64,000 nt of DNA from Deltaproteobacteria bacterium (GTDB lineage Bacteria > Desulfobacterota > Syntrophia > Syntrophales > JAAYKM01): the NCBI GenBank assembly GCA_012522415.1, contig JAAYKM010000032.1, positions 2,414 to 66,413 on the forward strand. The letters are read 5' to 3'. Positions within the stretch are counted from its first letter, which is position 1; each line of letters starts with the position of its first letter. Shown one piece after another: positions 43,153 to 44,787 of this stretch. Made by a program: the position numbers and the translations under genes. Under the pieces are notes generated by a model. It worked only from the letters and a program-made list of their open reading frames with translations. It did no database searches and was not told the DNA's origin.

Positions 43153-44787
43153 ATGGGAGCAAAGATTCTACAGTACGATGAAGAAGCAAGGAAATCCATC
43201 CTGAAGGGTGTCAACACCTTGGCGGATGCCGTGAAAGTGACCTTGGGGCCCAGAGGCCGTAACGTTATCCTGGATAAAAGTTTCGGTGCGCCGACCGTCA
43301 CCAAGGACGGCGTGACTGTGGCCAAGGAGATTGAGCTGGAGGATAAATTCGAAAACATGGGTGCCCAAATGGTTCGTGAAGTGGCGAGCAAAACCAGTGA
43401 TGTCGCCGGTGACGGAACCACAACGGCCACCATTCTGGCTCAAGCCATCTATCGGGAGGGGGTCAAGGCTGTTGCGGCCGGCAGCAATCCCATGGATGTC
43501 AAATGGGGTACCGACAAGGCCGCGGAGCCGGTGGTCGCAGAGCTGAAAAAACGGAGCAAGCCTACCAAAGATTAGAAGGAAATCGCACAAGTGGGTACCG
43601 TTTCCGCCAATAATGACGAAGATATTGGAAACATTATCGCCGAATCGATGGGCAAGGTTGGTAAAGAGGGCGTAATCACGGTCGAGGAGGCCAAAGGACT
43701 GGAAACGGAACTGGATATCGTTGAGGGGATGCAATTCGACCGCGGCTATCTTTCTCCTTACTTTGTTACCAATCCGGAAAAGATGGAAGTCAGTCTCTCT
43801 GATTGTTACATCCTGATCAACGAGAAGAAAATCAGTGGCATGAAGGACCTCCTCCCCATCCTTGAACAGATCGCAAAAATGGGCTCTCCCCTGCTGATCA
43901 TCGCTGAAGATATCGAAGGGGAAGCGCTGGCGACATTGGTCGTGAACAAAATCCGCGGGACCCTCCATGTGGCGGCCGTGAAGGCACCTGGTTTCGGTGA
44001 CCGACGGAAGGCCATGCTTGAGGATATTGCCACCCTGACGGGGGGGAAGCTGATCTCCGAGGATATGGGCGCGAAGTTGGAGAACGCCACGATTGACGAT
44101 CTGGGGAAGGCCAAGCGCATCACCATAGACAAGGACAACACGACCATTATCGATGGTGCCGGAAGCCGCGAGGATATTGAAGGCCGTGTCAAGCAGATTC
44201 GTGTTCAGATTGAGGAGACAACCTCCGATTACGACCGCGAGAAACTTCAGGAGAGATTGGCGAAACTTGTCGGTGGTGTTGCTGTAATCAGAGTCGGTGC
44301 CGCGACGGAAACGGAAATGAAGGAAAAAAAGGCACGGGTCGAAGACGCGCTCAATGCGACCCGGGCAGCCGTTGAAGAAGGGATCGTTCCTGGCGGCGGC
44401 GTCGCCTACCTGAGGACACTGGGGGCGTTGGATGGGCTTAAACTCTCTGGCGACGAACAGATCGGTGTGAGTATTGTGAAAAAGGCTCTCGAGGAGCCCC
44501 TCCGGCTGATCGCACAGAACGCGGGCATGGAGGGAAGCATTGTTGTTGAGAAGGTCAAGGAGAAGAAGGGGGCCTTCGGATTCAATGCCAGAACGGAAAA
44601 ATACGAAGACATGATTGGCGCCGGTGTTATTGATCCAACCAAGGTGGCTCGCTTTGCCCTGCAGAACGCAGCCAGTGTTGCGTCGCTGATGCTTACGACC
44701 CAGTGCATGATTGCCGACAAACCGGAGGATAAATCAGCCATGCCGGCCATGCCTCCCGGGGGAGGTTATCCCGGTATGGGTATGTAA
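43153..44787 (+). pseudogene. groEL: chaperonin GroEL interrupted by an in-frame TAG at 43573-43575
   Basis: The track ORFs 43153..43575 and 43591..44787 are in the same frame and together give a collinear full-length GroEL (..[13 protein letters not shown].., ..[14 protein letters not shown].., C-terminal GGYPGMGM). Reading across the stop gives SKPTKD*KEIAQVG. Confidence 0.9.

Follow-up and report, generated by a model that had tools for sequence, protein, structure and literature searches.

The chaperonin gene groEL is essential in almost all bacteria, and the canonical bacterial groES-groEL operon (PF00166 and PF00118) is one of the described systems closest to the locus examined here, which is carried on a 64-kb stretch of DNA referred to below as the window. 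The locus shares with canonical operons the gene order, the lengths of the two products (97 and 544 amino acids), 99% identity to an annotated Syntrophales GroEL, the presence of a promoter and a terminator, and strong purifying selection. It differs from them in a reading frame that is broken at codon 141, in the window assembly only, and in having no detectable CIRCE operator upstream of groES.

Three further systems offer points of comparison for the broken frame and for the cluster of substitutions (the patch) that surrounds it. Programmed amber decoding by pyrrolysine or suppressor tRNAs likewise features an in-frame TAG beyond which the frame continues, but the TAG of the window is not conserved even within its own strain, is frequent in the window as a true stop, has no tRNA-CUA in the window to read it, and stands alongside radical missense changes. 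The variable regions of DGRs and quasi-palindrome- or repeat-templated mutation clusters also appear as tight groups of substitutions in a short coding stretch. Unlike these, the patch has two of its seven changes at adenines, no template, and no second copy in the 64 kb. Consensus and assembly errors in metagenomes resemble the patch in being found in one assembly only, in extending over about one read length, in consisting of substitutions only, in including a stop with no trace of selection, and in overlapping contig breaks; parallel clusters, again private, are present on other same-strain contigs (in hisB on L009, at 20830-20899 on L024, and at the end of L008). The clusters on L009 and L024 are of the G-biased type found in low-quality read tails, and in this respect the transition-rich groEL patch is unlike them.

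The groES-groEL operon and the 70-nt patch

Anaerobic digesters harbour the uncultured Syntrophales population to which the window belongs; two of its strains, that of the window and a sister strain, are compared below. The operon and its surroundings contain the following features.

42738 to 42765, forward strand: sigma-70-like promoter TTGACA-16-TATTAT upstream of groES, by consensus match only
42835 to 43128, forward strand: groES (Cpn10), 97 amino acids, intact, with the same protein in both strains
43153 to 44787, forward strand: groEL (Cpn60), 544 codons in one frame, with TAG as codon 141
43313 to 43540: zone of groEL in which contigs end (L014 at 43313, L017 at 43463, L016 at 43533, L015 at 43540), overlapping the patch
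43504 to 43573, forward strand: patch of seven substitutions private to the window assembly, relative to five sister-strain contigs and the same-strain contigs L013, L015, and L016
43573 to 43575, forward strand: in-frame amber codon TAG, which is CAG in every other assembly covering codon 141
44817 to 44856, forward strand: intrinsic-terminator-like hairpin with a 17-bp stem, 3' of groEL

A sequence-only reading of this DNA had described an in-frame amber codon in groEL downstream of an intact groES, with the promoter and the terminator in place, and all of these elements were recovered. The TAG lies in frame with the ATG at 43153 and the stop at 44785-44787, and cuts groEL into open reading frames of 140 amino acids (43153-43575) and 398 amino acids (43591-44787). 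The frame is thus interrupted in the window and open in the other same-strain and sister-strain assemblies. The assignment to GroEL follows from collinear full-length similarity, with 99% identity over 100% of the length of a 544-amino-acid protein annotated as 'chaperonin GroEL [Syntrophales bacterium]' (P0001, from a MAG, with a precomputed Pfam assignment to PF00118), and from groES lying directly upstream at a spacing of 24 nt. Outside the patch, the window protein is identical to P0001. A CIRCE (HrcA) operator was sought with up to three mismatches and was absent both from the region preceding groES (42600-42835) and from the rest of the window; the sole promoter-like site at 42600-42835 is the sigma-70-like one. 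Judged from its sequence, the groES-groEL of the window is a normal, strongly conserved operon.

The seven changes of the patch amount to six replacements, one of which is the stop, and one silent change.

43504: C to T, R118W
43509: C to T, silent at G119 (GGC to GGT)
43511: T to C, I120T
43523: T to C, V124A
43528: A to C, T126P
43553: A to G, Q134R
43573: C to T, Q141 to TAG (CAG to TAG)

In the window, the segment before the stop ends in ...KKRSKPTKD, and the ancestral segment, as given by the same strain and the sister strain, reads MDVKRGIDKAVETVV...KKQSKPTKDQ. Among 188 close homologues, R118 is conserved in all 188, V124 in 187, and I120 in 182, with T at position 120 in none; P at position 126 is likewise found in 0/188, and so are W118 and A124. 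Position 141 is more permissive, with Q in 126/188 and Q, A, H, R, P, or K making up the set observed. The sequence-only reading had listed four substitutions close to the stop, and three of these (R to W, I to T, and V to A) stand; the fourth, given as A to P, does not, as the ancestral residue at 126 is T, and a fifth missense change, Q134R, had been missed.

The variant was not encountered elsewhere. Protein searches of a collection of 5.8 billion sequences returned no patch-bearing protein among the best matches, and the 140-amino-acid groEL fragment had no record in the protein collection. Two other proteins of the window, IleRS (with either possible start) and LspA, likewise had no record there. 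A degenerate 44-mer fitting both versions of the segment matched nothing in genome contigs and, in metagenome contigs, only a wild-type contig of the sister strain. A separate protein search for N-truncated partial GroELs that might serve as further same-strain witnesses of codon 141 yielded none; what it returned were misassembled GroELs, all from other species.

Other assemblies of the same strain and of a sister strain

Five contigs drawn from different samples encode P0001 (JGI 3300015214, ENA ERZ27247376, JGI 3300044603, Logan SRR6484323, and Logan SRR25572339), and all of them have the gene order of the window. These contigs (L001 to L005, corresponding to 33153-54788 of the window) are 100% identical to one another over up to 21.6 kb across the JGI, ENA, and Logan pipelines; therefore, one clone of this Syntrophales species is widespread in digesters, and the window represents a second strain (99.4%). 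Relative to the window, the sister strain shows 132 substitutions and three indels, all of them intergenic, over 21.6 kb (99.38% identity). Its GroEL is intact at 544 amino acids and differs from that of the window only at R118W, I120T, V124A, T126P, Q134R, and the stop at Q141. Across 19 genes, the two strains are separated by 68 silent and 46 replacement differences, or 67 and 40 once the groEL patch is removed, and no further stop or frameshift separates them in these genes outside the patch. In groEL itself, the remainder of the gene shows six silent differences and no replacement. By these counts, the differences between the window and the sister strain outside the patch are those of ordinary two-strain divergence under purifying selection.

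One other gene stood out in this comparison. A Yip1-family gene (11311-11910, reverse strand) carries 19 nucleotide and nine amino acid differences from the sister strain, with a dense patch at 11579-11749 in a membrane segment and an intact reading frame. It may represent a tract acquired by recombination, or else a segment that is diversifying.

Short contigs of the window's own strain were obtained by exact-sequence look-up of GroES, and three of them (L013, L015, and L016) cover the patch. The underlying data derive from biogas-upgrading reactors (BioProject PRJNA283612, assembly LSQX00000000; PMC5985405).

L013: ENA ERZ941572, run SRR3166067, spans 40333-44029
L014: NCBI LSQX01350240.1, ends at 43313, before the patch
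L015: Logan SRR3166067, ends at 43540
L016: JGI 3300038805, ends at 43533

Strain identity of these contigs can be read from the sites that mark the window strain against the sister strain. L013 carries the window allele at 14/14 such sites, of which 11 precede the patch and three follow it, and L015 and L016 carry it at every strain-discriminating site that they cover outside the patch; the closest marking sites are 265 nt before the patch and 203 nt after it. Within the patch, all three contigs have the wild-type base at every position covered (7/7 in L013, and the first five positions, 5/5, in both L015 and L016), with the last two positions, including the stop, covered by L013 alone among the same-strain contigs. 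The variant is therefore absent from the other assemblies of the window's strain, and the same strain elsewhere encodes KRGIDKAVETVV...Q134...Q141 in an open frame.

The recovery of CAG, or AAG, together with the canonical KRGIDKAVE in other data had been named beforehand as a test of whether groEL is truly inactivated, and the same-strain assemblies carry exactly this combination. The result counts against a true inactivation, which is not borne out, given the intact gene in the strain's other assemblies. Since these assemblies show CAG and the wild-type segment, the locally bad consensus that the sequence-only reading had offered as one option is the one supported. These comparators come from other assemblies, possibly of other samples, and so prove that the strain normally has an intact gene, which does not imply that the sampled population was free of the variant. 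In principle, a comparator contig could also have switched near the patch to the path of a co-occurring sister strain, yet the contigs seen from those samples included none of the sister strain.

L013 itself bears a private A to G change at 43541 (L013 position 3209), which replaces a near-invariant residue (E130G of GroEL) inside the same 70-nt patch. With Logan contig L015, from the same run, ending at 43540, this suggests a branch at 43541 in the sample of run SRR3166067.

Contig breaks and substitution clusters elsewhere

Four short-read contigs from this population, independent of one another, end between 43313 and 43540, which marks this part of groEL as hard to assemble. The breaks are likely caused by k-mers common to many related Syntrophales with GroELs that are 88 to 95% identical. 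Clusters comparable to the patch occur in other contigs of the same strain. The MEGAHIT contig L009 (ENA ERZ941570) carries 11 private substitutions within 100 nt of hisB (window 56376-56475, L009 2159-2258), among them an AAG to TAG change that turns K90 into a stop and cuts the product to 89 amino acids; hisB (56118-56708) is intact in both the window and L010. In contig L024 (ENA ERZ941572), the 70 nt at 20830-20899 contain four private changes. Of these, three are T to G, and the cluster looks like low-quality-read error carried into the contig. In L008, the last 53 nt contain three private mismatches.

Public metagenome entries for GroEL show related defects, many of them being internally duplicated (698 and 639 amino acids), chimeric, or frameshifted (P0121-P0125, P0147, P0155, and P0240-P0243). 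The gene appears to be a frequent site of misassembly.

Origin of the patch

The density of substitutions in the patch is far beyond what either of two backgrounds predicts. Seven substitutions in 70 nt compare with approximately 0.41 expected from between-strain divergence (Poisson P of ~3e-7) and with approximately 0.013 expected from the rate of private differences in the window (P of ~1e-17), and none of the seven falls in the remaining 1,565 nt of groEL. The latter rate was obtained by comparing the window with same-strain contigs (L018/L023, L019, L024, L025, L010, L008, L013, and L014), using the sister strain as an outgroup, which identified five private single changes in ~26 kb.

21674: silent
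27481: N177T in a Metallophos protein
27931: F27C in a Metallophos protein
39876: intergenic
41610: R34W in a NUDIX protein

Replacement and silent changes stand at 6:1 in the patch versus 40:67 in the between-strain background of 19 genes (Fisher P = 0.017). The patch thus combines a density far above the assembly background (7 in 70 nt versus 5 in ~26 kb) with no sign of selection. Its spectrum is rich in transitions (6/7; P = 0.007 versus a uniform spectrum).

We consider the patch to be most probably a local assembly or consensus error of this one assembly, to which we assign a probability of roughly 80%; this reading is drawn from comparing assemblies, and it supposes that the patch would lack support among the reads. 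Conservation of groEL among many co-resident Syntrophales would tangle short-read assembly graphs and break contigs at 43313-43540. An assembler, gap-filling, or polishing step may then have closed this stretch using one error-laden or damaged read, or a few of them, or contig ends may have been merged; errors at ~10% over about one read tail would thereby have become fixed in the consensus. As far as public data show, the TAG and the odd residues are most likely not a feature of the organism's groEL, and the GroEL made in the cell is almost certainly full-length and normal, with Gln as residue 141. Two observations sit less easily with an assembly error. The rest of the window looks clean, as ~30 kb compared with same-strain contigs shows neither indels nor broken genes, and the transition-rich spectrum is closer to what polymerase error, base deamination, or real mutation would leave than to G-biased tail errors.

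The same two observations, with no other assembly defects nearby, lend some weight to a real and very recent multi-nucleotide event in groEL of the sampled sub-lineage, such as an error-prone repair patch or the copying of a damaged template. The resulting null allele would be either a minority or dead-end variant picked by the assembler or a lesion tolerated via another chaperonin gene. The five private single changes in ~26 kb mark the window as a slightly distinct sub-lineage, so real private mutations do exist, and E130G, the private replacement of L013, likewise falls within these 70 nt. We nevertheless regard such an event, in either form, as unlikely. Seven hits within 70 nt and none in the other 1,565 nt do not resemble pseudogene decay; no donor is apparent, with none of the 188 homologues having these residues and no copy of the patch in the window; and the same-strain assemblies are intact. 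Moreover, the similar clusters in other same-strain assemblies strike other genes at random, which indicates a technical cause. We know of no bacterial process that yields ~10% mixed-type substitutions over 70 nt. Somewhat less probable again is the specific case in which a single real multi-nucleotide event has disabled the canonical groEL of an uncultured syntroph within one sub-lineage. This would entail either an unusual process of local hypermutation at work in the population, to which the private clusters in hisB and elsewhere and E130G in the same patch would then belong, or unexpected redundancy through another chaperonin, with the canonical groEL being dispensable in a syntroph.

Some bacteria have several groEL genes, and the window copy could accordingly be a decaying paralogue, a second groEL having rendered it redundant, a case that the sequence-only reading had also entertained. 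This is very improbable for a canonical copy that is linked to groES, with a promoter and a terminator, and that six to eight other assemblies contain intact and in synteny. Outside the patch, its protein is identical between strains that are 0.6% apart in bases, and the six silent differences without a replacement give no indication of relaxed selection or of lesions along the gene, the damage being confined to one tight patch rather than scattered. No second groEL was found in the 64-kb window by tblastn, and among the matches listed (at least 600) for groEL-related loci in genome contigs, the best had 88% identity.

Least credible, and in our estimate very close to excluded, is decoding of the TAG by amber suppression, pyrrolysine, or programmed read-through, with full-length GroEL still being made. 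The frame is kept across the TAG, and a Gln-inserting suppressor would restore the wild-type residue, the ancestral codon being CAG. However, CAG occupies this site in the sister strain and elsewhere in the same strain, and TAG is not conserved in orthologues from related species. TAG is also common as a true stop, ending 11/40 genes in the window, on which ground a genome-wide reassignment was rejected as well. The sole tRNA in the window is a tRNA-Met, with no suppressor or pyrrolysine tRNA within it. Even if the TAG were read through, five missense changes would remain, four of them to residues found in 0/188 homologues and three at invariant or near-invariant residues. The stop-codon suppression raised in the sequence-only reading therefore finds no support.

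Several other candidates were rejected or not supported. The mutant 8-mer GGGTACCG is found again 86 nt downstream. A nearby repeat as the source of the changes, by templated mutagenesis or by gene conversion, was dismissed, as the longest matches were 7 to 9 nt for the mutant alleles and 6 to 9 nt for the wild-type alleles, and a second copy of the patch was not present in the 64-kb window. DGR-type adenine mutagenesis was rejected from the two of seven changes at A and from a template repeat not being found. A mosaic consensus drawn from related species would not account for W118, T120, A124, and P126, each seen in 0/188 close homologues, and long-read homopolymer or methylation-motif error is not supported by the indels, which number zero versus the same strain in ~30 kb and three versus the sister strain, all intergenic. 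The palindromic hexamers GGTACC and CCGCGG created by the patch are within chance by a rough estimate (two seen, ~0.5 expected).

With a local assembly or consensus error as the preferred reading, what looked like a dead essential chaperonin or an amber-recoding site dissolves when other assemblies of the same strain are compared, and the case calls for caution. Metagenome assemblies are vulnerable at conserved marker genes such as groEL, as seen here in contig breaks within the gene, duplicated or frameshifted entries, and clusters of private substitutions. Pseudogene or recoding calls from MAGs therefore need read-level or cross-assembly support.

Among the changes private to the window assembly, the C to T substitutions at 21674, 41610, and 43504 share an A-C-G context.
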